Source: a virus
Length of the DNA: 53,290 bases
Direction: 5' to 3' (one strand)
Virus genome (UHGV): UHGV-0119950
Shown here: in pieces, positions 2,641-51,515 of the stretch
Numbering within the stretch: the stretch's first letter is position 1
Layout of the letters: each line of letters begins with the position of its first letter
Program-made: the position numbers and the translations under genes
Notes under the pieces: model-generated
The model's database searches: none
What the model was told of the DNA's origin: nothing
The model's input: only the letters and a program-made list of their open reading frames with translations

Positions 2641-3750
2641 TTAGTTCACGTATTCCGGTTTCATGTCGTCAAGGGTGATGCGGAACTGGTCATACAGTTC
2701 TTCACCCAGATGACGTTTGGCAGCGCTGAGCGTATTTTCAGCTTTAGCGAACATCGCTGCGGCTTCCGGTTCGCTGGGATTTGGAAGTGAGTTGATCACA
2801 GCCTCGACCTTGTTCTGCGCATCGACCTGGTAATAACGTTTCACCGCCTTATTTTTCAGTTCGGTGAACAGCGCTGTGCCCAGCAACGCTTTCTGCGATT
2901 CGATATCCGCGCGGATAGCTTTGGCCTGGTCAACAGAGCTTGCTGTATCAATCCGGTCACGTAGATCGTCTGCAACGGCATCAACATTAGTTGCCGATTC
3001 CTGCGCGCTGGTCGTGGTGCTAACCTCGCCAGTGATTTCCTGTACGCTCATGCGCTGGACTGGCGCAGGGTTAATCTCGCGTTCTTCTCGCTGCTCAACT
3101 TCATCAGGGCTGTACACGCCGAGGATCACTTCCGGGCAGTACAGGCGAGCCCAATATTTAACGCCCAAATAGGCAATTTGCTGTTTAGGATTGGAAACCC
3201 ACAGCGGGGAATTGCGGGTAACAACGCCGGAGAGGTAAAGAGGTTCCCCCCAGGTGATTTCGGATTCACCGCGCAGGATTGCGCCAACCTGGACGAACAG
3301 GCCGATCTCGTCCTCATCCGTCCAGCCACGAACGCGTTCAGTGACGGTGTATTTGCCGTTTTTCCCGTTTTTATCGCGCGTAATTTCCTGTGTTCTGGTG
3401 CAGCGCTCCCAGTCACCTCCATAACGGTAATGAAAACGGCCATGAATGGCACTGGAACTGGCGATTACCGCGTTGACAAGTTGCGCCTCGTATCCAAGAA
3501 CACCGTTAACCAGATGCGTTTTTTGCGCCACCGCGTATGGGTTCATGCCCCACTGCATCGCCTGCATAACGATTGCCATGCAGTCTGCCGGTTTACCTGC
3601 CAGATGCGCCGGGACCGTCACCTGGGAGTCGGCCATCAGATTTGCGAATGCGGTTAACTGGCTCAGCGCCTGTACGTTAAAAATCGCGTTACTGGCTGAA
3701 ATGGTGTTTGGTGCCTGCTGTTCAGTGGTGACAATGCTGGTGTTTTCCAT
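2641..3750 (-). CDS. single-strand annealing protein, RecT/Red-beta family
   Basis: Start moved to ATG with RBS AAGGGGG (MENTSIV...). Segment MAIVMQAMQWGMNPY resembles lambda Bet LLIVANQYGLNPW; sits directly downstream of exonuclease gene. Confidence 0.7.
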   Translation of the reverse strand: MENTSIVTTEQQAPNTISASNAIFNVQALSQLTAFANLMADSQVTVPAHLAGKPADCMAIVMQAMQWGMNPYAVAQKTHLVNGVLGYEAQLVNAVIASSSAIHGRFHYRYGGDWERCTRTQEITRDKNGKNGKYTVTERVRGWTDEDEIGLFVQVGAILRGESEITWGEPLYLSGVVTRNSPLWVSNPKQQIAYLGVKYWARLYCPEVILGVYSPDEVEQREEREINPAPVQRMSVQEITGEVSTTTSAQESATNVDAVADDLRDRIDTASSVDQAKAIRADIESQKALLGTALFTELKNKAVKRYYQVDAQNKVEAVINSLPNPSEPEAAAMFAKAENTLSAAKRHLGEELYDQFRITLDDMKPEYVN

Positions 3751-8562: not shown

Positions 8563-8954
8563 TAGTTACACGCGAATTTTATACCATCTAGTGTTGTGTT
8601 TTTAAGGATGTCTTCGGCATAAAATTTGAAGTAAACCCTCATCAAAGATGAAAAATACCAAGTATATTCCTTTAAAAAATCCTCATTGAGATTTTCGCTT
8701 TTTGGATAAGAGAAAATCATTCTAATGTCGATTTTTAGAGAAAAATCTGGTTTTTCACTGCCTTTCCTGAACCCTTGAGCGATGGGGCTTGCTGAAACTT
8801 TAATTGATGACATTGATGGATCGCCACCACCGACTTCAAAATCTAAGGCGCCATATACAACCTTGATCGTGCCCTCACCAGGTGTAAGCATGGTTTGATT
8901 GAACTCCACGTTTAGAATCGCAGATTCAACCATGTTGATATCGTTAGGCAACAT
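8562..8954 (-). CDS. hypothetical protein, cassette gene 3 of 3
   Basis: 130 aa; AT-rich; start overlaps stop of upstream gene by 11 nt; no recognisable motif. Confidence 0.5.
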   Translation of the reverse strand: MLPNDINMVESAILNVEFNQTMLTPGEGTIKVVYGALDFEVGGGDPSMSSIKVSASPIAQGFRKGSEKPDFSLKIDIRMIFSYPKSENLNEDFLKEYTWYFSSLMRVYFKFYAEDILKNTTLDGIKFACN

Positions 8955-9363
8955 TTATCTCATAATCCCTGTTTTGAGGCTTAATGGTAATCTTGATGAC
9001 TGGGCTTGGTTCGTCCATGAAACTATTTAAATTCATAACGTAGTGCTTATGAGCAGGTATAACAGGATGAGAAACATCACATCCATTCTTCAGGATTACT
9101 ACTTTTGCTTCGGCACCTAGAGCGTAGGAAATATCGGAGAGGGTTTTTAGTGTCATGTTCCTAGTTCCATCTAGCAACTGAGAAACATGCGAAGCCGACT
9201 TGCCAAGTTTTTTAGCAAGTTCACGCTTAGTTATACCTGTATCCTGCATAGCTAAAAGGATGTCTTCTGTAGTATTGAACACTAATCGTTCGGAAGCCAT
9301 CTCTCTATCACTAATGTATGGAAAACCAAAAATTTCTTCTGCGAAAGTCTTATCAGTAGTCAT
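8944..9363 (-). CDS. XRE-family HTH DNA-binding protein (antitoxin-like), cassette gene 2 of 3
   Basis: 139 aa; helix-turn-helix segment ITKRELAKKLGKSASHVSQLLDG; overlaps both neighbours. Confidence 0.6.
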   Translation of the reverse strand: MTTDKTFAEEIFGFPYISDREMASERLVFNTTEDILLAMQDTGITKRELAKKLGKSASHVSQLLDGTRNMTLKTLSDISYALGAEAKVVILKNGCDVSHPVIPAHKHYVMNLNSFMDEPSPVIKITIKPQNRDYEINVA

Positions 9364-9781
9364 CTAAACCTCTCTCGATTCTCTCCCAGTTGTTACAAAC
9401 TTTTTGGACATCAGAATCGCTTAAATCATCAAAATCTTTGTAGATGTAATGACTCATAAAATAAGTCATTGATACTCTCTCCGACTCCCAGTAGTACCCT
9501 CGAATAGGTATCTTCTTTATAGCCCAGAAATTTTTTTTAGGTTTGCCATTGTAAGAAGGCAGTATTCCTTCCTTTCTGACGCTGAGATCTGGAGTTCTTT
9601 TACCTGATGCCAGGCGCTCTATTTGTAGTCTAAGCTTGACCATCATGGCTTTTTGCTTCTTAGCAGGAGTAACACTCAGTATCGCATCAGCTAGAGTTTT
9701 TAGCGCTCCATTACAATGGGTTACAGTGAAGCAAGCGCCCTTAAAAGTATGTTGAACCATCCACTTATCCATAGTTAACAT
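9353..9781 (-). CDS. hypothetical protein, possible RelE/HigB-like toxin fold, cassette gene 1 of 3
   Basis: 142 aa; AT-rich; precedes an HTH gene in toxin-then-antitoxin order; toxin assignment is only by arrangement and loose pattern; start codon uncertain (no clear RBS). Confidence 0.45.
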   Translation of the reverse strand: MLTMDKWMVQHTFKGACFTVTHCNGALKTLADAILSVTPAKKQKAMMVKLRLQIERLASGKRTPDLSVRKEGILPSYNGKPKKNFWAIKKIPIRGYYWESERVSMTYFMSHYIYKDFDDLSDSDVQKVCNNWERIERGLDDY

Positions 9782-9875
9782 ATATATTAACTCACAATTT
9801 GCAAGTGAGCCACCTTCATCTTATAGAGATAATCCGAAAAGCATGATGGTTAGCAATTCATGTCCTTATCAACTC

Positions 9876-10031
9876 TCAAAGGGACATACCGATAACGGCA
9901 TTAACCACACTTGACGCCATAAACACGCCGCCAACGATGAAGCTGGCCTGGTTCTTCCTGGTAGCGCCAAGAGTCAACAGAACCACTGAAAGGGCAAAGA
10001 AAGGTATCGCGATTATGCTGAACGTGTTCAT
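9876..10031 (-). CDS. small hydrophobic membrane protein, 51 aa
   Basis: Not in ORF track. Translation MNTFSIIAIPFFALSVVLLTLGATRKNQASFIVGGVFMASSVVNAVIGMSL; two hydrophobic stretches; directly downstream of repressor gene on same strand. Confidence 0.4.
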   Translation of the reverse strand: MNTFSIIAIPFFALSVVLLTLGATRKNQASFIVGGVFMASSVVNAVIGMSL

Positions 10032-10043
10032 GTTGACCTCAAG

Positions 10044-10463
10044 TTATTGCGATTCTCCGTCACCCTTAATCCGTCGCCCCATGTACTTCGCGTACAGCTC
10101 GTCGAGCTCCTTCAGTCGCAGAGATACGATCCGCAACATGTTCTGCTGCTCTTCTTCCGGCAGCTGGCGATAGAGTTCCAGCAGGCGCTGCTCGTCAGGC
10201 TTCATACCATCTTTCTCGCCGACATCTTCCCCGAGCAGCCAGGCGACCGAAACACCAACAGCATCGGCTATAGCCAGTGCTGATTTTTTGCTAATAACGC
10301 CTTTTTTAAACCAGCTATTGACCGCCTGAGGCGAGACTCCGGCTATTCGCGCCATATCTGCTTTGGTAATGCCTCTGGCATAGACCTCGTTGAGTCGCGC
10401 TATCAATGCTTTGTTGGGTTCTTCTTTTCTCATTCTCTCATTGTAAATGGTTAGTTTACACAC
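10044..10463 (-). CDS. prophage repressor, CI-like HTH, no S24 peptidase domain
   Basis: 139 aa; HTH (ITKADMARIAGVSPQAVNSWFKKG); divergent from cro-like gene; too short for a LexA-like cleavage domain. Confidence 0.75.
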   Translation of the reverse strand: MCKLTIYNERMRKEEPNKALIARLNEVYARGITKADMARIAGVSPQAVNSWFKKGVISKKSALAIADAVGVSVAWLLGEDVGEKDGMKPDEQRLLELYRQLPEEEQQNMLRIVSLRLKELDELYAKYMGRRIKGDGESQ

Positions 10464-10534
10464 TCAATAAATTGAATATTGATTGAAATATAAATCTGTG
10501 GTTTACTTTCTTCGTTGATAGTTAGGAGAAGAAA
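10464..10534. promoter_or_regulatory. OR-like operator/promoter region between repressor and cro-like gene
   Basis: 71-bp divergent intergenic region with AT-rich repeated TTGATTGAAAT/ATTGAATATTG motifs. Confidence 0.45.
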
Positions 10535-10768
10535 ATGACAGCACTTGATAAAGCAATTAAGGCCGCTGGTTCAGCGAGAAAGCTAAGCATGGCACTTGGT
10601 GTAACCAGTATGTCAATTAGCCATTGGAAACATCGCGACAGAGGCATTGTGCCGCCAGATTACATATTAAAAATTCACAGCATAACCGGTGTTACTCCCC
10701 ACGAATTGCGCCCTGATCTGTATCCGAACCCAACGGATGGATTACCGGCGCAGGAAGCGAGGGCGTAA
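10535..10768 (+). CDS. cro: Cro-like HTH regulator
   Basis: 77 aa; HTH (SARKLSMALGVTSMSISHWKHR); divergent from repressor. Confidence 0.7.
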   Translation: MTALDKAIKAAGSARKLSMALGVTSMSISHWKHRDRGIVPPDYILKIHSITGVTPHELRPDLYPNPTDGLPAQEARA

Positions 10769-10770
10769 CC

Positions 10771-11313
10771 GTGCATTCAATTTCATTTCAACAAAATACC
10801 GGGTTTCCTCCAGCCACGATGATAAATCGCAATCAGCCTGATCCGGCGGATAAGCATGACCAGATTCGGGCTGCCGTTCGTGCGTGGTCGGCATCGCTGG
10901 ACAACCAGGACGTAGTCGCCGGGATCATCGTTGAAGAATGGGAACGGCAGGGCGGCGCCGGGCTGGATTTTCCTGACGACCTGAGCCGTAAGCGGCAGAA
11001 GCTTTTCCGCTGGCTGGACAGCGACACCGGATATGCGCGCGAAAACATCCGCCAGCTGACTCCGGCAATCCTGGCTGTTATGCCGCTGGAATTTCGTGGG
11101 CGCCTTATCGGACAGGATTGTTTCATGACGCGTTTTGCAGCGATGGAGAAGGAAATCAGCGAGGCGAAACAGGCCGTAATGTTGAATGCGCCAAAGCATC
11201 AACTGGTGAAAGAGGTCAGGGAAGGGATTGAGCATCTGCTGAATATGTTGCCGGATGATGCTGTTGTTCAGGTTCTGAGTGGTATCGCGGCCATAGCGCC
11301 GGGTGTCATGTGA
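10771..11313 (+). CDS. CII-like regulatory protein (possibly CP76-type)
   Basis: 180 aa ORF immediately after cro-like gene (GTG start); position matches lambdoid cII; family call from memory. Confidence 0.45.
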   Translation: MHSISFQQNTGFPPATMINRNQPDPADKHDQIRAAVRAWSASLDNQDVVAGIIVEEWERQGGAGLDFPDDLSRKRQKLFRWLDSDTGYARENIRQLTPAILAVMPLEFRGRLIGQDCFMTRFAAMEKEISEAKQAVMLNAPKHQLVKEVREGIEHLLNMLPDDAVVQVLSGIAAIAPGVM

Positions 11314-11576
11314 GGTTACCAGATGAATCATTTGGAGTTCATAGAAAAGCATGTCCGGGAAGAGTTGATCCGACAGGGCTTCACCGTAGCGGTGGCTCAG
11401 GGGGGGCATTTCAGGCCGTCGATATGTACAAGCGAATGAGCCAGGCAAGCAGAAAGGGGAGGATTTTTGATGATGTTTTACGTCACGCGAAATTGTGGGC
11501 AGAAAAACAAACATTACCGGCTGATCGGTTTGATTCAAAACGGGCTAAACGGGGCAGGCAACAGGGCTTGTTCTGA
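11310..11576 (+). CDS. hypothetical basic protein
   Basis: 88 aa ORF between CII-like and replication genes. Confidence 0.3.
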   Translation: MRLPDESFGVHRKACPGRVDPTGLHRSGGSGGAFQAVDMYKRMSQASRKGRIFDDVLRHAKLWAEKQTLPADRFDSKRAKRGRQQGLF

Positions 11577-11695
11577 AAGGGTGAAGACCGCTGTGCTCGA
11601 ACACAGACGGCCTTCGGGTGCAATTAGTTGCGTACTCATTGCGAGGTCATTATGACAAAGAGTTTTTCAAAACACCAGGCAAGGGAGGCATAGCT

Positions 11696-12694
11696 ATGTC
11701 GAATGTCGCCTACGCCGATTTTGCGGCGCGTACCGCCGTCAGGAGCAACCGGATGGAAAACCAGAAGACCGGATTCATCCCGTTGTACCGGAGTGTACTC
11801 AAGCAGCCCTGGTCAGAAGATGTTTACCTGCGTACGTTGTGGGATAACCTGCTTTTGGGCGCTGCCAGCCAGCCATACACAGCGAGCTTTAAAGGTCGCC
11901 AATGGCCGCTACAAACCGGACAACTGGTGACCACGGCGGCCGATCTGGGCCTGAAACTACGTGACAGAAAAGGCAACCCAACAAGCCGTGATGCTGTTGA
12001 GAGAATGCTGACATTTTTTGTGCGCGAAGGGATGATTTCCATTGAGGGGGAACGGCAAAGAGGGCGTGTGATCACGATCTCAAATTATGCCGAATATGCT
12101 CAAAAAATGGACAATTTACCCGCACAAACTTCCGCACATACCAGCGCACATATGACCGCACATGGCGAAGCCAGTAACGGCGCGGGTTTGGCGGCAGGTA
12201 GCGCACATGAAAGCGCACATACATCCGCACAAACAAGCGCACATCATGAACAATATATATTAAATACTAACGTATTTAATGTACGTCAGAGAATTTCCAA
12301 AGTTGTTCCTGATGCAGCAGTCCAGACTCCGAAAGGTGACAAGTGGGGGACATCTGACGATCTCCGTTGCGCAGAGTGGATGCTGGCACTGCGTGACATC
12401 ACCAAACCATCCCTGAAAAAACCGAACATGGCTGGCTGGGCGAATGACATACGCCTGATGCGCCAACTGGACGGACGCACCCACAAAGAGATTTGTGAGT
12501 TGTTCAGATGGGCCTGCAAAGACTCGTTCTGGTACAAAAATATTCTCTCTCCCGCAAAGCTCCGCGCCAAGTGGGACACGTTAACCCTTCACCGTGAAGA
12601 CACTACCCGCAAGCCACGCGCAGATGTCAGCGCAAGCAAATCCGAAACTGGCCCGCACTGGAACAGTGCTGAAGCATGGGAGAAATTTTTATGA
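11696..12694 (+). CDS. replication initiator, O-like (replisome organiser N-terminal domain)
   Basis: ATG with RBS AAGGGAGG; N-terminus fits replisome-organiser pattern; gene contains iterons and AT-rich tract; followed by P-like gene. Confidence 0.65.
   Translation: MSNVAYADFAARTAVRSNRMENQKTGFIPLYRSVLKQPWSEDVYLRTLWDNLLLGAASQPYTASFKGRQWPLQTGQLVTTAADLGLKLRDRKGNPTSRDAVERMLTFFVREGMISIEGERQRGRVITISNYAEYAQKMDNLPAQTSAHTSAHMTAHGEASNGAGLAAGSAHESAHTSAQTSAHHEQYILNTNVFNVRQRISKVVPDAAVQTPKGDKWGTSDDLRCAEWMLALRDITKPSLKKPNMAGWANDIRLMRQLDGRTHKEICELFRWACKDSFWYKNILSPAKLRAKWDTLTLHREDTTRKPRADVSASKSETGPHWNSAEAWEKFL
12121..12290. repeat. putative origin of replication: two clusters of four 12-bp iterons (CGCACA plus 6 nt) followed by AT-rich tract
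   Basis: CGCACA recurs at 12-bp period at 12121-12168 and 12202-12249, then CAATATATATTAAATACTAACGTATTTAATGTACG; encodes the TSAH peptide repeats in the O-like protein. Confidence 0.5.
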
Positions 12695-13386
12695 CCCCGG
12701 ATCTTTATCGTGCAATTCAGAATCGCGACAGCGAAATGCTATCGCGCATGGCTGGAGACTCTTACGACGGACGTAAGGTTGTTAACAGTGACGCTGAAAA
12801 GCTGGTGGATATGCTTTTTGAAAATCTCATGCAGGTATTTCCGGCATCCACTCAGACGAACCTACGTACTGGCGATGATATTCGCGTTGCAAAGCAGCAA
12901 TGGATCGCCGCTTTTGCTGAGTCAGGCATCACCTCCCGTGAGCAACTTTCCGCCGGAATGCAGAAAGCCCGATCCAGTCAGTCACCGTTCTGGCCGTCGC
13001 CGGGTCAGTTTATTTCGTGGTGCCGTGAGGGGAGTGGCGCGCTGGGAGTCAGTGTGGACGACATCATGAGCGAATACTGGCGCTGGCGGAAACTTGTTTT
13101 TCGCTATCCGACGAGTGAGCAGTTCCCCTGGAGGGATAAAAACCCGCTGTATTACCACGTCTGCCTGGAGCTGCGCCGTCGTGGAACGGAGGGGCAACTC
13201 AGCGAAAAGGAACTTATCCGGGCCGCTGGCGACATCCTGCATGACTGGGAAAAGCGTGCTCTTGCTGGCAAGCCCATACCACCTGTTCGTCGCGCTATAG
13301 CCGCGCCTTCGCAGGATCGTGGGCCAACACCAGCCGAGCTGTTAATGGCGAAGTACAAGCAGCGTAAAGACGCCGGGCTGATTTAA
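12691..13386 (+). CDS. replication protein P-like helicase loader
   Basis: Matches lambda P as I recall it (FPAS, RQWVLAFRENGIT vs QQWIAAFAESGIT, PFLPSPGQFVAWCRE vs PFWPSPGQFISWCRE); ATG overlaps O-like stop. Confidence 0.8.
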   Translation: MTPDLYRAIQNRDSEMLSRMAGDSYDGRKVVNSDAEKLVDMLFENLMQVFPASTQTNLRTGDDIRVAKQQWIAAFAESGITSREQLSAGMQKARSSQSPFWPSPGQFISWCREGSGALGVSVDDIMSEYWRWRKLVFRYPTSEQFPWRDKNPLYYHVCLELRRRGTEGQLSEKELIRAAGDILHDWEKRALAGKPIPPVRRAIAAPSQDRGPTPAELLMAKYKQRKDAGLI

Positions 13387-13402
13387 CGGGAGGAGAATAA
13401 CG

Positions 13403-13714
13403 ATGGCAAGCAAATCACTGTGGGCAATTGTTGATTTCCTTCGGGAAAACCAGACCATCACGCCGCGACAGGTTCAGAACCTGCTGGGATGTGACTGCAA
13501 GAAATCTCACAACCTGTTGCTTCACCTGACGCGCAAAGCGGTAGTGATCCGTACAGGCGAGCCGCATCACCCGGTCTATTCGCTGTTGCCCGGCGGAGAA
13601 CTGAATATCAAGCGCTTCAAATCGACCGTGAGAAAAAACATGGTCTCATCCGTTTGCCGAAACAGTGCGGCGATGAAGCGAATTTTAATGGTTTGGGGGA
13701 GGGCATCAGCATGA
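13403..13714 (+). CDS. hypothetical protein
   Basis: 103 aa ORF with RBS GGGAGGAG. Confidence 0.4.
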   Translation: MASKSLWAIVDFLRENQTITPRQVQNLLGCDCKKSHNLLLHLTRKAVVIRTGEPHHPVYSLLPGGELNIKRFKSTVRKNMVSSVCRNSAAMKRILMVWGRASA

Positions 13715-16825: not shown

Positions 16826-17082
16826 TGGATCAACTTCTGCAATACGCCACCAATCGGATTATAGAACTGGAAAACCTTCTGCTGGTGAATGTTGAGGAAA
16901 CGGTCTGGCCAGCAGAGGTTCAGATGGTTTTTAGTCAAATCGAAAACGCCGGGAGTTTCCCGGCGCACCACCAGCGCCGATTGCAGCACCACATCAACAG
17001 AATGTGGCTGGAAAAAATACCGGTTACTTCGATTATTGCCGCAGCGCGCTCGCTGGCAGATGCAATGGAGAAATACGCGTGA
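16822..17082 (+). CDS. hypothetical protein
   Basis: 86 aa ORF. Confidence 0.4.
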   Translation: MMDQLLQYATNRIIELENLLLVNVEETVWPAEVQMVFSQIENAGSFPAHHQRRLQHHINRMWLEKIPVTSIIAAARSLADAMEKYA

Positions 17083-19160
17083 GAAATAGCGAAATCATTG
17101 TTGATAATTTTGCTGGTGGCGGCGGTGCTTCCACTGGAATTGAGATGGCGACTGGCCGCAGCGTGGACATTGCGATTAACCACGATCCGAATGCCGTTGC
17201 GATGCACACGACAAACCACCCCAATACACTGCATTATTGCGAATCTGTCTACGATGTCAGGCCGAAGGTAGCGACCGCCGGGCGTCCGGTGGCGCTGGCG
17301 TGGTTCTCGCCGGATTGCCGTCACTTTTCAAAAGCCAAAGGTGCGAAGCCGGTAGAGAAAGCGATCCGGGGTCTGGCCTGGGTAGTTCTGCGCTGGGGGC
17401 TGGATGTAAAACCCCGGGTGATGAAACTGGAGAACGTCGAAGAATTTAAAACGTGGGGCCCTTTGCTCGCTGGTGAAATGAGGCCAGACCCGGCCCGTGC
17501 TGGAGAAAATTTTGAGGCGTTCATTGGTATGCTGACTACTGGCATCCGGGCTGACCACCCGGCACTGGCGGAGTGCTGTGAATTTCTGGGTATTTCTCTT
17601 GATAGTGAAGACGCCGCGAGGCTGATCAAAGGGCTGGGCTACATCGTCGAGTATCGCGAGTTGCGCGCCTGCGACTACGGTGCGCCGACGATCCGCAAGC
17701 GATTCTTTATGATTATGCGTTGTGACGGGAAACCGATTGTGTGGCCTGAGCCAACACATGGCGATCCGAAATCACCGGCTGTCCAGGCTGGTAAGCTGGC
17801 ACCGTGGCGCACAGCTGCGGAGTGCATAGACTGGACAATTCCGGCTCCATCGATATTCGATCGCAAAAAGCCGCTGGCAGAAAATACCCTTAAGCGCATC
17901 GCGCGCGGCATCCAGCGATTTGTTATCGACAGTGCGTCGCCGTTTATCGTGAAGTGCAACCACACCAGCAGCCGTTCAAGTTATGATTGTTTCCGTGGGC
18001 AGCCACTGGAAGAACCCCTGCAAACGATCACGAAAAAGCATGGTTACGCCGTCGCAGTACCACATCTGACGAAGTTCCGTACCGGCGCAACCGGGCAGGA
18101 AGTCACCGAACCTGTACCGACTGTAACAGCTGGCACGTCGGCGCGCCCGGGTGGGAATGGTCATGCGCTTGGTATCGTTGAAGCTGCGCTGACTCCGTTC
18201 CTGGCTGGTAATGGCGGCAGTGAGTACCAGGCTAAGCCGCGCCCGCTGGATAAACCAGCTCACACTATACTGAAACAATCCCGGGCATGTGTCGTTGCGC
18301 CGGTTATCGCCCGACAGTTTGGCGCCAGCACCGGCCACCGCGCAGATGAGCCGAACGCGACTATTACCGCTGGTGGCGGCGGTAAATCGCAACTTGTTAC
18401 ATCGACACTGATCCAGATGGGATACGGGGAAAGGCCAGGTCAGGAACCTCGCGTTCTCCAGATCGAAAAACCGTTAGGGACAGTAACCGCTGGTGGAAAC
18501 AAGTTCGCCGTGGCCAGCGCATTTCTGGCGAAGCACTACGGCGGCAACTATACGGGACCGGGCGTCGGGCTGGATGAGCCGACTCACTCAGTTACGACGG
18601 TTGATCATCATGCGGTTGTTGCGGCACATCTAATGGTGAACAACACCGGGCATCCTGGCGGCTCCGTGGACTCTCCAGCGCATACCGTTACAACAGGAAA
18701 TCACCATGCTGTAGTGACTTCTCATCTTGTGCATTTGCGAGGGTTCTGCAAAGACGGTCAAAAAATGGATCAGCCGGTGCCAACGATTACCGCCGGAGGC
18801 CAGCATGTTGGGGAGGTGAAAACCACTCTGGCAGTTGAGCACTACAACGAACAGCGCGCGCAACAGACGTTGGCGTTCCTGCGTGAATATTGCGGCGAAG
18901 ATTGTACCGGGCTGGTGGATATCGACGGGATCACATATCGTATTGTTGATATCGGAATGCGCATGCTGCAACCGCATGAGCTTTACCGCGCGCAGGGCTT
19001 CCCGGACTGGTACATCATCGATCGGGATTATCGCGGCGTGAAGTATGCAAAGGATAAGCAGGTTGCCCGCTGCGGTAATGCTGTGCCGCCACCGTTCGCC
19101 GAGGCTCTGGTAAGGGCCAATTTACCCGAACTTTGCCAGCCGAAAGAAATGGCAGCGTAA
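17079..19160 (+). CDS. DNA (cytosine-5) methyltransferase with eight tandem repeats in the variable region
   Basis: Motif I DNFAGGGG, motif IV SPDCRHFS (Cys present, PDC not PCQ), motif VI LENVEEF, motif IX QGFPDWY, motif X CGNAV; GTG at 17079 with GGAG upstream chosen over track start 17004. Confidence 0.8.
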   Translation: MRNSEIIVDNFAGGGGASTGIEMATGRSVDIAINHDPNAVAMHTTNHPNTLHYCESVYDVRPKVATAGRPVALAWFSPDCRHFSKAKGAKPVEKAIRGLAWVVLRWGLDVKPRVMKLENVEEFKTWGPLLAGEMRPDPARAGENFEAFIGMLTTGIRADHPALAECCEFLGISLDSEDAARLIKGLGYIVEYRELRACDYGAPTIRKRFFMIMRCDGKPIVWPEPTHGDPKSPAVQAGKLAPWRTAAECIDWTIPAPSIFDRKKPLAENTLKRIARGIQRFVIDSASPFIVKCNHTSSRSSYDCFRGQPLEEPLQTITKKHGYAVAVPHLTKFRTGATGQEVTEPVPTVTAGTSARPGGNGHALGIVEAALTPFLAGNGGSEYQAKPRPLDKPAHTILKQSRACVVAPVIARQFGASTGHRADEPNATITAGGGGKSQLVTSTLIQMGYGERPGQEPRVLQIEKPLGTVTAGGNKFAVASAFLAKHYGGNYTGPGVGLDEPTHSVTTVDHHAVVAAHLMVNNTGHPGGSVDSPAHTVTTGNHHAVVTSHLVHLRGFCKDGQKMDQPVPTITAGGQHVGEVKTTLAVEHYNEQRAQQTLAFLREYCGEDCTGLVDIDGITYRIVDIGMRMLQPHELYRAQGFPDWYIIDRDYRGVKYAKDKQVARCGNAVPPPFAEALVRANLPELCQPKEMAA

Positions 19161-24653: not shown

Positions 24654-24789
24654 AAGACGAGTTGCAGCGACATCACTACAACCCGCCAAAGGTCACCAAA
24701 AGGTATTAGGATAAATCTTAATTCTAATTATGTTTTAAATCACTTCTTAAAGCATCCTTAAATCTGGTAGTTCCTGTACGGATAATTTT

Positions 24790-50176: not shown

Positions 50177-51262
50177 TTACGTATTTACGATATTTTTCTT
50201 AACTTTTGCAGCGCGCGGCGCTAAATGCCGCGCCACTTTCCTTGAAGGTTCTTCTACAATGTGGAAAAGTATATGCGAAATGGCGAAACTTACGCCAACA
50301 ATCAACAAAACATTTGAGAATCCAAGTTTAGGATTATAAAATGGCACGGGAAGGTATTTTTTAAGAAGTACAGTTATTACTATTGTATGTACAAGATAAA
50401 GCGAATAAGAAACGTTGCCCATCCAGTCAAGGATTTTATTTAATTTTATCTCTCTTGTTGTTTCGAATATTGAAAGAGAAAGCAAAAGCATAAAAGCATA
50501 AACACCACAATTTAGCAATCCGTGACCGCCATTATATCCAGACATATAGAAGAATATAAATGCAAAAACAGAAATAAAGAGTAACGGCGCTGATATATTT
50601 TTGAAAGAGTGAATTTTTGCATAGTTATAGATCTGATAGATAACCATCCCAGCGACGAACTCAAGTAGCATTGGCGATGCGAACAGTTTTAGCACCCATG
50701 GGGCGCTAGGGTCGTTTAATGTTGAATATCCACTAAGATTAATCTCACCATTATATAGTATTCCCAAAATAGATACTGAAGCAATTATTATTGCAGTGCT
50801 AATATAAAATCTATTCTTCCAGGAAATCGACATCGCAAATGAAAATATGATGTAAAAAATTATCTCATACGTCAGAGTCCAGGCAGTTGATATCACCGAA
50901 TAACCGAACCAAGGGGCTGATTTCTCAAAGTTTAAGTTAATAAAGAAAAGGGCTTTTAGATAATTAATATCTATCGGCTTTGTGAATATTAATGCGCATG
51001 ACACCAGACATATAAAATAAACAGGGTATAATCTAAAAAAACGCTTCACAATAAATGAACGAACAGAGGAGTCCTTTTCTGTTGACAACATGATTACAAA
51101 TCCACTTATCATGAAAAAAAGATCCACTCCTATGTATCCATAGTTAAACAATATGTTACCCAAATTGCTCTGAGCATAAATATTGTTCAATTCTCCACGG
51201 GCATGATATAAGACGACAAGCAAAGCAGCTATTCCACGGAGGTATTGCAAAGAATAAAGCAT
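50177..51262 (-). CDS. acyltransferase family 3 membrane protein (O-antigen acetylase-like)
   Basis: 361 aa, many transmembrane segments; N-terminal LRGIAALLVVLYHA signature; AT-rich; convergent with tailspike. Confidence 0.75.
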   Translation of the reverse strand: MLYSLQYLRGIAALLVVLYHARGELNNIYAQSNLGNILFNYGYIGVDLFFMISGFVIMLSTEKDSSVRSFIVKRFFRLYPVYFICLVSCALIFTKPIDINYLKALFFINLNFEKSAPWFGYSVISTAWTLTYEIIFYIIFSFAMSISWKNRFYISTAIIIASVSILGILYNGEINLSGYSTLNDPSAPWVLKLFASPMLLEFVAGMVIYQIYNYAKIHSFKNISAPLLFISVFAFIFFYMSGYNGGHGLLNCGVYAFMLLLSLSIFETTREIKLNKILDWMGNVSYSLYLVHTIVITVLLKKYLPVPFYNPKLGFSNVLLIVGVSFAISHILFHIVEEPSRKVARHLAPRAAKVKKNIVNT

Positions 51263-51515
51263 TTTATTAGCCTTGGTTGTTTATTTTTTAATAGTAAGAA
51301 ATTTATCAATTCTAGCATTCATCCCGCTTGTGAGCGACAATTTTGTTAACATTATGTCATTGTGATGGGTGCGCATTTAAAAAATCATTACTGGTGGTTG
51401 CCTGCTGCTGACTTCCCACCTGACCAATCACCCATAAAACTAAATTTCACCTCCCGCCAGTCACTTACTGTTTCATTCACTCTTAGGGGCTTGATTGCTG
51501 CCACCGATGCAATAA

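Follow-up and report, generated by a model that had tools for sequence, protein, structure and literature searches.

The initiator protein O of phage lambda binds iterons that occupy the middle part of its own gene and adjoin an AT-rich tract (PMC7466680). According to the annotation, these iterons are four 18-bp sites, placed 20, 24 and 23 bp apart, which start at codon 116-117 of O, after the N-domain. Gene 18 of phage P22 contains four repeats of ~20 bp, and six imprecise 11-bp repeats in gene 18 of phage L constitute the likely origin of that phage (PMC8022706); the phage L repeats, TGTCCAACGGA, are annotated as rep_origin in the record MW013502. Here, a locus of this kind is described in the UHGV virus genome UHGV-0119950, analysed over a stretch of 53,290 nucleotides (hereafter, the window) that probably represents a prophage of Citrobacter. 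Eight short direct repeats and an AT-rich tract lie in the linker-coding part of an O-type initiator gene, and with a probability of approximately 85% this locus is the replication origin of a lambda-like prophage, its binding by the initiator and its firing being envisaged by analogy with lambda. The arrangement as such, an origin inside gene O, is known, while the type of repeat appears to be previously undescribed and comes closest to lambda ori and to the predicted origin of phage L. No account of CGCACAW repeats, of their two sister types or of the bipartite plan that the arrays share was found in a literature search that covered older papers only in part, and the paper on the ‘Eru’ replication regions of Shiga toxin (Stx) phages does not discuss origins or repeats. 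PMC6118388 was set aside, as it concerns iterons of IncX1 plasmids and not a prophage gene O.

The initiator gene and the elements found in it are as follows (positions are those of the window):

11696..12694, + strand: O-type replication initiator gene, 332 amino acids, containing the origin (open reading frame, Pfam and PHROG matches)
11750..12088, + strand: region coding for the N-terminal winged-helix (Phage_rep_O) domain, the presumed repeat-binding module (Pfam match)
12098..12112, + strand: conserved left flank GCTCAAAAAATGGAC (A-tract), directly upstream of the repeats
12121..12168, + strand: iteron cluster A, four 12-bp units with the core CGCACA(A/T)
12169..12201, + strand: 33-bp spacer between the clusters, with the central motif CCAGTAACGGCGCGG at 12171-12185
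12202..12249, + strand: iteron cluster B, four 12-bp units with the core CGCACA(A/T)
12242..12253, + strand: conserved junction CATCATGAACAA (His-His-Glu-Gln), right end of the array
12250..12290, + strand: AT-rich tract, presumed DNA-unwinding element (GC and duplex-stability profile)
12267..12289, no strand assigned: imperfect inverted repeat CTAACGTA-N7-TACGTCAG inside the AT-rich tract
12293..12640, + strand: region coding for the C-terminal domain, homologous to the P-interacting domain of lambda O (sequence identity)

On the + strand, the core CGCACA(A/T) starts at positions 12121, 12133, 12145 and 12157 and again at 12202, 12214, 12226 and 12238, the spacing of the units being 12, 12, 12, 45, 12, 12 and 12 bp in exact 12-bp phase. 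All eight cores are perfect, and Tandem Repeats Finder independently reported period-12 arrays at 12120-12163 and 12202-12244. The sequence CGCACAW matches both strands of the window 15 times, and eight of these matches fall within one 124-bp span, whereas shuffled sequence yields 22.4 matches per window, that is, ~0.05 per span of this length; by our own arithmetic, the chance of at least eight matches in 124 bp is ~1e-15. The units encode the peptide AQTS AHTS AHMT AHGE ... AHES AHTS AQTS AHHE. The original prediction, made from the letters of the sequence, had proposed two clusters of four 12-bp CGCACA repeats that give rise to TSAH-type peptide repeats, sit inside an O-like initiator gene and are followed by an AT-rich tract; each of these anatomical claims was borne out, as the eight units stand where it had placed them, their translation reads as it described, and the gene and the tract have the properties given below.

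The cores are asymmetric and 7 bp long, and no dyad symmetry common to the units was found. Relatives of the locus were drawn from annotated phages, IMG/VR viral contigs and bacterial genomes, the scan of the genome collections being queried with a single protein, and arrays were parsed in 87 loci, 71 of the arrays being unique. The offset from the last unit of cluster A to the first unit of cluster B equals 45 bp in 87 of the 87 parsed loci. Arrays of 3+3, 4+4 and 5+5 units occur, and since both smaller and larger arrays than that of the window exist, the unit of binding is probably one core. At 10.5 bp per turn, the 12-bp spacing would place successive protomers ~50 degrees further round the helix. 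DnaA boxes and sites of the IHF type were considered as the identity of the cores and rejected, as CGCACAW, compared by eye, resembles neither consensus. In addition, the core occurs once in inverted orientation, on the - strand at 12018-12024 (+ strand sequence TTGTGCG), ~100 bp upstream of the array and within the codons of the conserved FVRE of the recognition helix; a copy is kept at this position in the genes of Klebsiella phages and is absent from CUS-3.

The likeliest start of the initiator gene is the ATG at 11696, preceded 7 nt upstream by the ribosome-binding site GGGAGG. The N-domain of the product matches the Pfam family Phage_rep_O (PF04492) with E = 7.9e-19 and 68.4 bits against a cut-off of 28.7 (residues 20-132, numbered on the translation from 11693). 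This is the only Pfam match of the initiator, plasmid Rep families not being matched, and the PHROG matches are to O-like replication-initiation and DnaD-like families. The closest protein in a large database is a ‘replication protein’ of Citrobacter koseri, also of 332 amino acids and 98% identical. The C-domain shares 57% amino acid sequence identity over 116 residues with residues 174-283 of lambda O (E = 3e-43). In an AlphaFold2 model computed from 50 homologues, two domains are folded (approximately residues 30-137 and 209-313), the first consisting of a helix, three strands, two further helices and a two-strand wing, with a predicted local distance difference test (pLDDT) score of 68-88 by block. 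Residues 138-208, which join the domains and are encoded by the repeats and the AT-rich tract, have a pLDDT below 50 and probably form a disordered linker. Since the linker is modelled at low confidence, the protein would impose few structural demands on the DNA of the repeats, which start at codon 143, at most ~10 codons past the end of the Phage_rep_O domain.

The AT-rich tract has a GC content of 0.20 at 12240-12279. Its least stable 40-mer (12244-12283) has a nearest-neighbour free energy of -40.3 kcal/mol compared with the window mean of -55.6 (z = 3.55); 0.015% of the window positions are less stable, which puts this 40-mer, located within coding sequence, among the three least stable segments of the 53 kb. 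The only two segments of the window with a lower predicted duplex stability are found at 24691-24765 and 51253-51325. In all 106 related loci compared, the 36 nt past the His-Glu-Gln codons have a GC content of 0.17-0.31 versus 0.54 for the N-domain DNA, and this same stretch encodes 26 different peptides of unrelated families, for example ILNTNVFN, GNNNNKNIKR and GINKNINN. The AT-rich tract, too, therefore looks like a feature of the DNA and not of the protein. The inverted repeat inside it is kept in relatives with the ILNTNVFNV peptide variant, and is reminiscent of the palindrome on the right of the AT-rich region of lambda. The same inverted repeat is one of the eight terminator-like sites that a scan of 9800-13500 returned, where 4.0 +/- 1.8 were expected and none was convincing; three promoter-like sites in the same interval (3.5 expected) were no more convincing, and an Rfam scan of 9800-13600 gave a chance match only (E = 0.61) and no known RNA element.

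As to the comparison with lambda, the lambda origin and the putative origin of the window each follow directly on the part of the initiator gene that encodes the Phage_rep_O N-domain, with the AT-rich tract 3' of the repeats, and in the alignment of N-domains the starts of the lambda iterons and of the window repeats are at most ~10 codons apart. The two systems also share the C-domain at the identity given above, a P-type gene that overlaps the stop codon of O, a ren-like gene and the order of the upstream immunity region. However, the N-domains themselves match only at the level of the Pfam profile (18% identity in the alignment), and where lambda has one block of four 18-bp sites, the window has two clusters at an offset of 45 bp, with a conserved motif between them; each cluster consists of four asymmetric 7-bp cores spaced by 12 bp. 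Lambda-type origins are characterised by sites of ~18-19 bp that have dyad symmetry within them and form a single block of four to six; such sites were not found here. The proposal of the original prediction that this is the prophage origin, of the lambda type and inside O, is supported at the level of the sequence: the position of the repeats, the AT-rich tract, the C-domain, the P-type gene and, as described below, the constraint on wobble bases and the joint change of cores and N-domain speak for it. The geometry of the sites is one respect in which the analogy with lambda is loose.

In its layout, the locus follows the plan of gene 18 of phage L, where a predicted origin inside an O/gp18-type initiator gene likewise consists of two clusters (3+3, spaced by 11, 11, 44, 11 and 11 bp) around the motif CCAGTAATGACGCGG, followed by an AT-rich tract. 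The core of phage L, however, is unrelated, its 11-bp period is out of codon phase, the repeats being read in three frames, and the partner is a helicase of the DnaB type, whereas the window has a loader of the P type; the N-domains of the two initiators are distant, with 25% identity over 154 amino acids (E = 8e-7, pairwise). Stx phages 933W and P27 likewise carry a lambdoid prophage origin in gene O, with a variable number of iterons that lengthens the linker peptide (PMC7466680). Unlike the window, they possess lambda-type origins of six iterons that are lambda-like in sequence and size (PMC7466680). The core type of the window is found in Stx2a-converting phages other than 933W and P27, which were the ones studied experimentally.

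In iteron-containing theta plasmids, Rep binds direct repeats of 17-22 bp beside an AT-rich unwinding element. The window shares with them direct, not inverted, repeats, a winged-helix initiator and the adjoining, presumed unwinding element, but the iterons of plasmids exceed these cores in length and are usually located outside the rep gene, and the initiator of the window matches Phage_rep_O only. A plasmid replicon of the Rep_3 or RepA type was rejected on this ground, the initiator also having no relative among solved structures by sequence.

The N-domains that are 70-100% identical to that of the window are associated with two discrete types of core, and none of the 71 unique arrays is mixed:

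A-type (includes the window): core CGCACAW, 19 unique arrays, A at core position 4 in 139 of 140 units
G-type: core CG(C/A)GCAW, 52 unique arrays, G at core position 4 in 410 of 411 units

The G-type sister lineage comprises our loci L017-L080 and L090-L107 (for example, L053 at 2926-3100), and the change is synonymous for Ala. In the 140 A-type units, positions 1-7 hold 1.2-2.0 bits and positions 8-12 hold 0.2-0.5 bits; with all types taken together in the 12-nt register, positions 8-12 hold 0.2-0.6 bits, and up to 1.0 at one position of the G-type. Core positions 1, 4 and 7 are wobble positions of codons and are nearly invariant. Position 1, the wobble base of the preceding codon, is C in 548 of 551 units compared with ~29% elsewhere in the same genes. 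At position 4, the Ala codon of A-type units is GCA in 138 of 139 cases (24% elsewhere in the same genes), that of G-type units is GCG in 293 of 294 (20% elsewhere), and the Glu codon of G-type units is GAG in 117 of 117 (45% elsewhere). Position 7, the wobble base of a His or Gln codon, is A or T in 495 of 495 units versus 51% elsewhere. Changes of His to Gln and of Ala to Glu are tolerated in the cores, but the synonymous codons CAC and CAG are never seen. In the window alone, the use of GCA in eight of eight units has p = 5e-5 and the preceding C in eight of eight has p = 3.5e-5, given the codon usage of the gene itself, and the Ser codons before the cores are both TCC and AGC, with the C kept in each.

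The 5-nt spacers vary among arrays, and so do the amino acids encoded. Over the origin stretch of 83 unique sequences, amino acid conservation falls to 0.67-0.71 from 0.89 in the body of the N-domain, whereas wobble entropy falls to 0.43-0.53 from 0.99, which is the reverse of ordinary coding DNA. In the same set, the codons GCT, CAA, AAA and GAC of the left flank have zero wobble entropy, although the ATG codon between them varies (M in 59%) and amino acid identity nearby varies as well; the codons CAT, GAA and CAA of the junction (12245-12253) also have zero wobble entropy. Taken together, these data indicate that the constraint acts on the DNA sequence of the cores and not on the peptide, and the locus illustrates well how an overlapping DNA signal can dictate the wobble bases of a coding region. 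Concerted evolution through slippage or gene conversion was rejected as the sole cause of the uniform cores, because it would make the 12-nt units uniform over their entire length, whereas positions 8-12 differ both within and between arrays.

A change of core goes with a change of the initiator N-domain. A-type N-domains as low as 70% identical keep the same core, whereas G-type N-domains up to 82% identical to the A-type have a different one. Three columns of the N-domain separate A-type from G-type perfectly, namely A81 versus S/T, D99 versus H and E117 versus A/S; in the model, A81 is the first residue of helix 2, D99 the second residue of the recognition helix, and E117 lies in the first strand of the wing. 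That these three residues are determinants of specificity is suggested by the way they follow the switch of the core. N-domains that are 25-50% identical to that of the window go with arrays of an identical layout but with unrelated cores:

Salmonella phage S.Inf 5-2 lineage: core CGAT(G/A)AAC
Enterobacter phage BHUENT6: core G(T/A)CGA(A/G)
Xenorhabdus prophages: core AGGTAACAAA
Sodalis and metagenomic viral contigs: core CGGTACAC
Metagenomic viral contigs: core CGCCCTC
Phage L lineage: core TGTCCAACGGA

Only 11739-12253 of the window, that is, the N-domain and the repeats, is similar at the nucleotide level to CUS-3, HF4s, Klebsiella phages and Escherichia coli prophages, and all of these matches stop at 12253 (query position 561), the right edge of the array. 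Across the 106 loci compared, the lambda-O-like type of C-domain seen in the window is invariably accompanied by a P-type loader (102 loci) and a second type by a DnaB-type helicase (three loci), while the CGCACAW module is found with both. CGCACAW loci (the window, CUS-3, Klebsiella and Yersinia phages) have different regulators upstream and a different loader or helicase downstream, which leaves the initiator N-domain as the only constant partner of the repeats. N-domain and repeats are inherited jointly, and the C-domain goes with the type of helicase loader. The anatomy of the locus, the selection on the DNA of the cores, the joint change of core and N-domain and this modular inheritance can all be read from the compared sequences themselves.

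The window type of N-domain is also present in 48 records of Stx2a-converting phages, in one further Stx2-converting phage and in phage TL-2011a, and the one Stx2a-converting record that was examined (L009) has a CGCACA array of 4+4 units. The matches H28 and H34-H76 are records of Stx2a-converting phages and TL-2011a, and their origins are unannotated. The comparison thus allows a putative origin to be placed for a family of prophages that includes CUS-3, HF4s, Kapi1, several Klebsiella and Yersinia phages and the 48 Stx2a-converting records. O genes of the enterobacterial type were also met on JAEWMQ010000060.1 (L110, a 3.3-kb contig from a bin of a Bacillota metagenome-assembled genome) and OR850084.1 (H80, 2.7 kb, ‘Staphylococcus phage’), both of which are probably mis-binned or mislabelled.

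By analogy with lambda, the winged-helix N-domain would bind the eight CGCACA(A/T) cores, four per cluster, to form a nucleoprotein complex that destabilises the adjoining AT-rich tract at 12250-12290, and, once the DNA is open, the lambda-O-like C-domain would bring in the P-type loader together with the DnaB helicase of the host. Early transcription running rightward through cro, cII and O would cross the site, as it does in lambda, and might activate it. Since the sites adjoin the DNA that encodes the domain recognising them, the specificity of the initiator and the origin would be inherited as one unit, and recombination at the AT-rich junction could swap the half that recruits the helicase.

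Several points weigh against reading the locus as an initiator-bound origin. No experimental data on binding or origin activity were found for the element or its close relatives. Because the geometry of the sites differs, neither the stoichiometry nor the shape of the lambda complex can be carried over. A Foldseek search of the initiator model against the PDB gave no significant match (best E = 0.12), its weak neighbours (E >= 0.1) being mostly winged-helix DNA-binding proteins, which would lend weak support only, and a sequence-profile search of all solved structures found no relative. The repeats physically adjoin the coding DNA of the N-domain, so their joint inheritance is partly forced by linkage. 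Finally, the split between A-type and G-type is essentially one between two clades, and the diagnostic residues could be phylogenetic hitch-hikers; for this reason the link of the three residues to the type of core is suggestive and not conclusive, and the chance that all three columns fall in the helix-turn-helix-wing segment is ~0.05 by our own arithmetic.

One must also consider that the repeats matter as protein only, as a flexible His-rich (x-x-Ala-His) linker in which the DNA sequence has no role. The repeat is in codon phase and gives a regular peptide, the region is a probably disordered linker of low confidence in the model, and Ala-His is fairly well kept across many homologues. Such an explanation is nevertheless extremely improbable in view of synonymous positions that stay nearly invariant while amino acids vary, His-to-Gln and Ala-to-Glu changes included, and of two lineages that differ by a synonymous base, uniform in all copies. 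Moreover, the equivalent of phage L has an 11-bp period read in three frames, and other lineages encode EVTN, GTPx or ERPQ in the same DNA layout. If the repeats are DNA sites, they could serve a factor other than the initiator, either a host protein or another regulator of the phage. Linkage alone could account for the joint inheritance with the N-domain, the binding of the initiator is itself a prediction from sequence, and the conservation of the central motif across different cores hints at something besides the specificity domain. A conserved host factor, however, fits poorly, because the cores are wholly different among lineages of the same or related hosts; regulators and loader or helicase differ at CGCACAW loci, where the N-domain is the sole constant partner, and residues of its helix-turn-helix-wing follow the type of core. 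We regard a factor of this sort as unlikely.

It is very unlikely, too, that the locus is an origin by descent which has fallen into disuse, or that its conserved flanks act mainly as recombination joints for the exchange of modules, even though homology between phages breaks exactly at the right edge of the array, conserved boundary sequences have been annotated elsewhere in the CUS-3 genome and many prophages are defective. The window retains eight perfect cores, intact O, P and ren genes and a complete complement of genes for recombination, packaging, head and tail, and a recombination joint would account neither for phased, wobble-constrained cores nor for an AT-rich tract maintained through 26 different peptides. 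An origin recognised by the N-domain of its own initiator agrees best with these observations. On this reading, the phages would provide a natural series of matched pairs of initiator and repeats, one of them set apart by a single base per site and three candidate specificity residues, and the family varies in copy number (3+3, 4+4 and 5+5) around an invariant central motif. Recognition and the switching of specificity at phage origins would thereby become directly testable.

The central motif merits separate consideration. Its strict form, CCAGYAAYGRCGCGG, which encodes Ser-Asn-Gly/Asp-Ala-Ala/Gly, was found in 86 of the 233 loci retrieved and at a single place in the window; the same form is found at L117 31686 (phage L), L113 2955, L007 2458 and L006 2464. 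At least eight unrelated cores occur in arrays that have a variant of AGY AAY GRC GCG GSN TTG in their middle. In phage L and a Xenorhabdus prophage, whose initiators are highly diverged, the motif is identical in 15 of 15 nt, and it recurs between initiators that are only 25% identical in protein. Its Ala codon is GCG in the eight representatives compared, with deviations in BHUENT6 (GCT), a Sodalis locus (AAG) and some G-type arrays (GAG, GGG), and the wobble bases of its Ser and Asn codons vary freely within the A/G family. The motif may act either as DNA or as a short linker peptide motif. Tentatively, and with rather more doubt than conviction, these loci could be seen as members of a widespread, undescribed class of O-type origins in phages of Enterobacterales, in which two arrays of short cores (11-12 bp) are set at a fixed offset of 44-45 bp around a central motif AGY AAY GRC GCG GSN TTG kept at the DNA level. 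The centre would then be the site of a second, shared factor or the point at which the complex nucleates, and a switch of specificity could require as little as a single base in each core (A versus G at position 4) along with three winged-helix residues.

The setting of the locus has the appearance of an early-right operon of the lambda type, with the following genes around the initiator:

10044-10463, - strand: cI-like repressor
10535-10768, + strand: cro-like gene
10771-11313, + strand: cII-like gene
12676..13386, + strand: lambda P-type helicase-loader gene (Pfam Phage_lambda_P, E = 1.6e-52; PHROG P-like helicase loader, E = 3.3e-75)
13403..13714, + strand: ren-like gene (PHROG Ren-like exclusion protein, E = 1.1e-25), which completes a lambda-like O-P-ren order

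The true start of the P-type gene is probably the ATG at 12691, which overlaps the stop codon of O as ATGA; the annotations of lambda and of Klebsiella phage Mulock show an identical 4-nt overlap of O and P. Pfam places the cro-like and cII-like genes in the families YdaS_toxin and YdaT_toxin, and their PHROG matches are to a transcriptional repressor and a CII-like activator, the regulatory reading being favoured because of the position of the genes. The gap between the cII-like gene and O is filled by an 88-amino-acid open reading frame (ORF) at 11310-11576, after which a GC-rich inverted repeat, noted by eye at ~11577-11612, might be a terminator or a processing site. To the left of the repressor gene, two overlapping ORFs of 142 and 139 amino acids occupy 8944-9781 on the - strand; the downstream one contains, as judged by eye, a stretch resembling a helix-turn-helix, and the pair may represent a toxin-antitoxin system or accessory regulators.

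Elsewhere in the window, RecE/RecT-like recombination proteins, a large methyltransferase, terminase, portal, major head protein, tape measure, tail proteins and an O-acetyltransferase are encoded, and the prophage is apparently complete and lambda-like. The DNA methyltransferase, of 718 amino acids, is encoded at 17004-19160. The gene at 50177-51262 (- strand), similar to O-acetyltransferases and O-antigen acetylases, lies beside the tail-fibre gene on the opposite strand and is probably a serotype-converting accessory.

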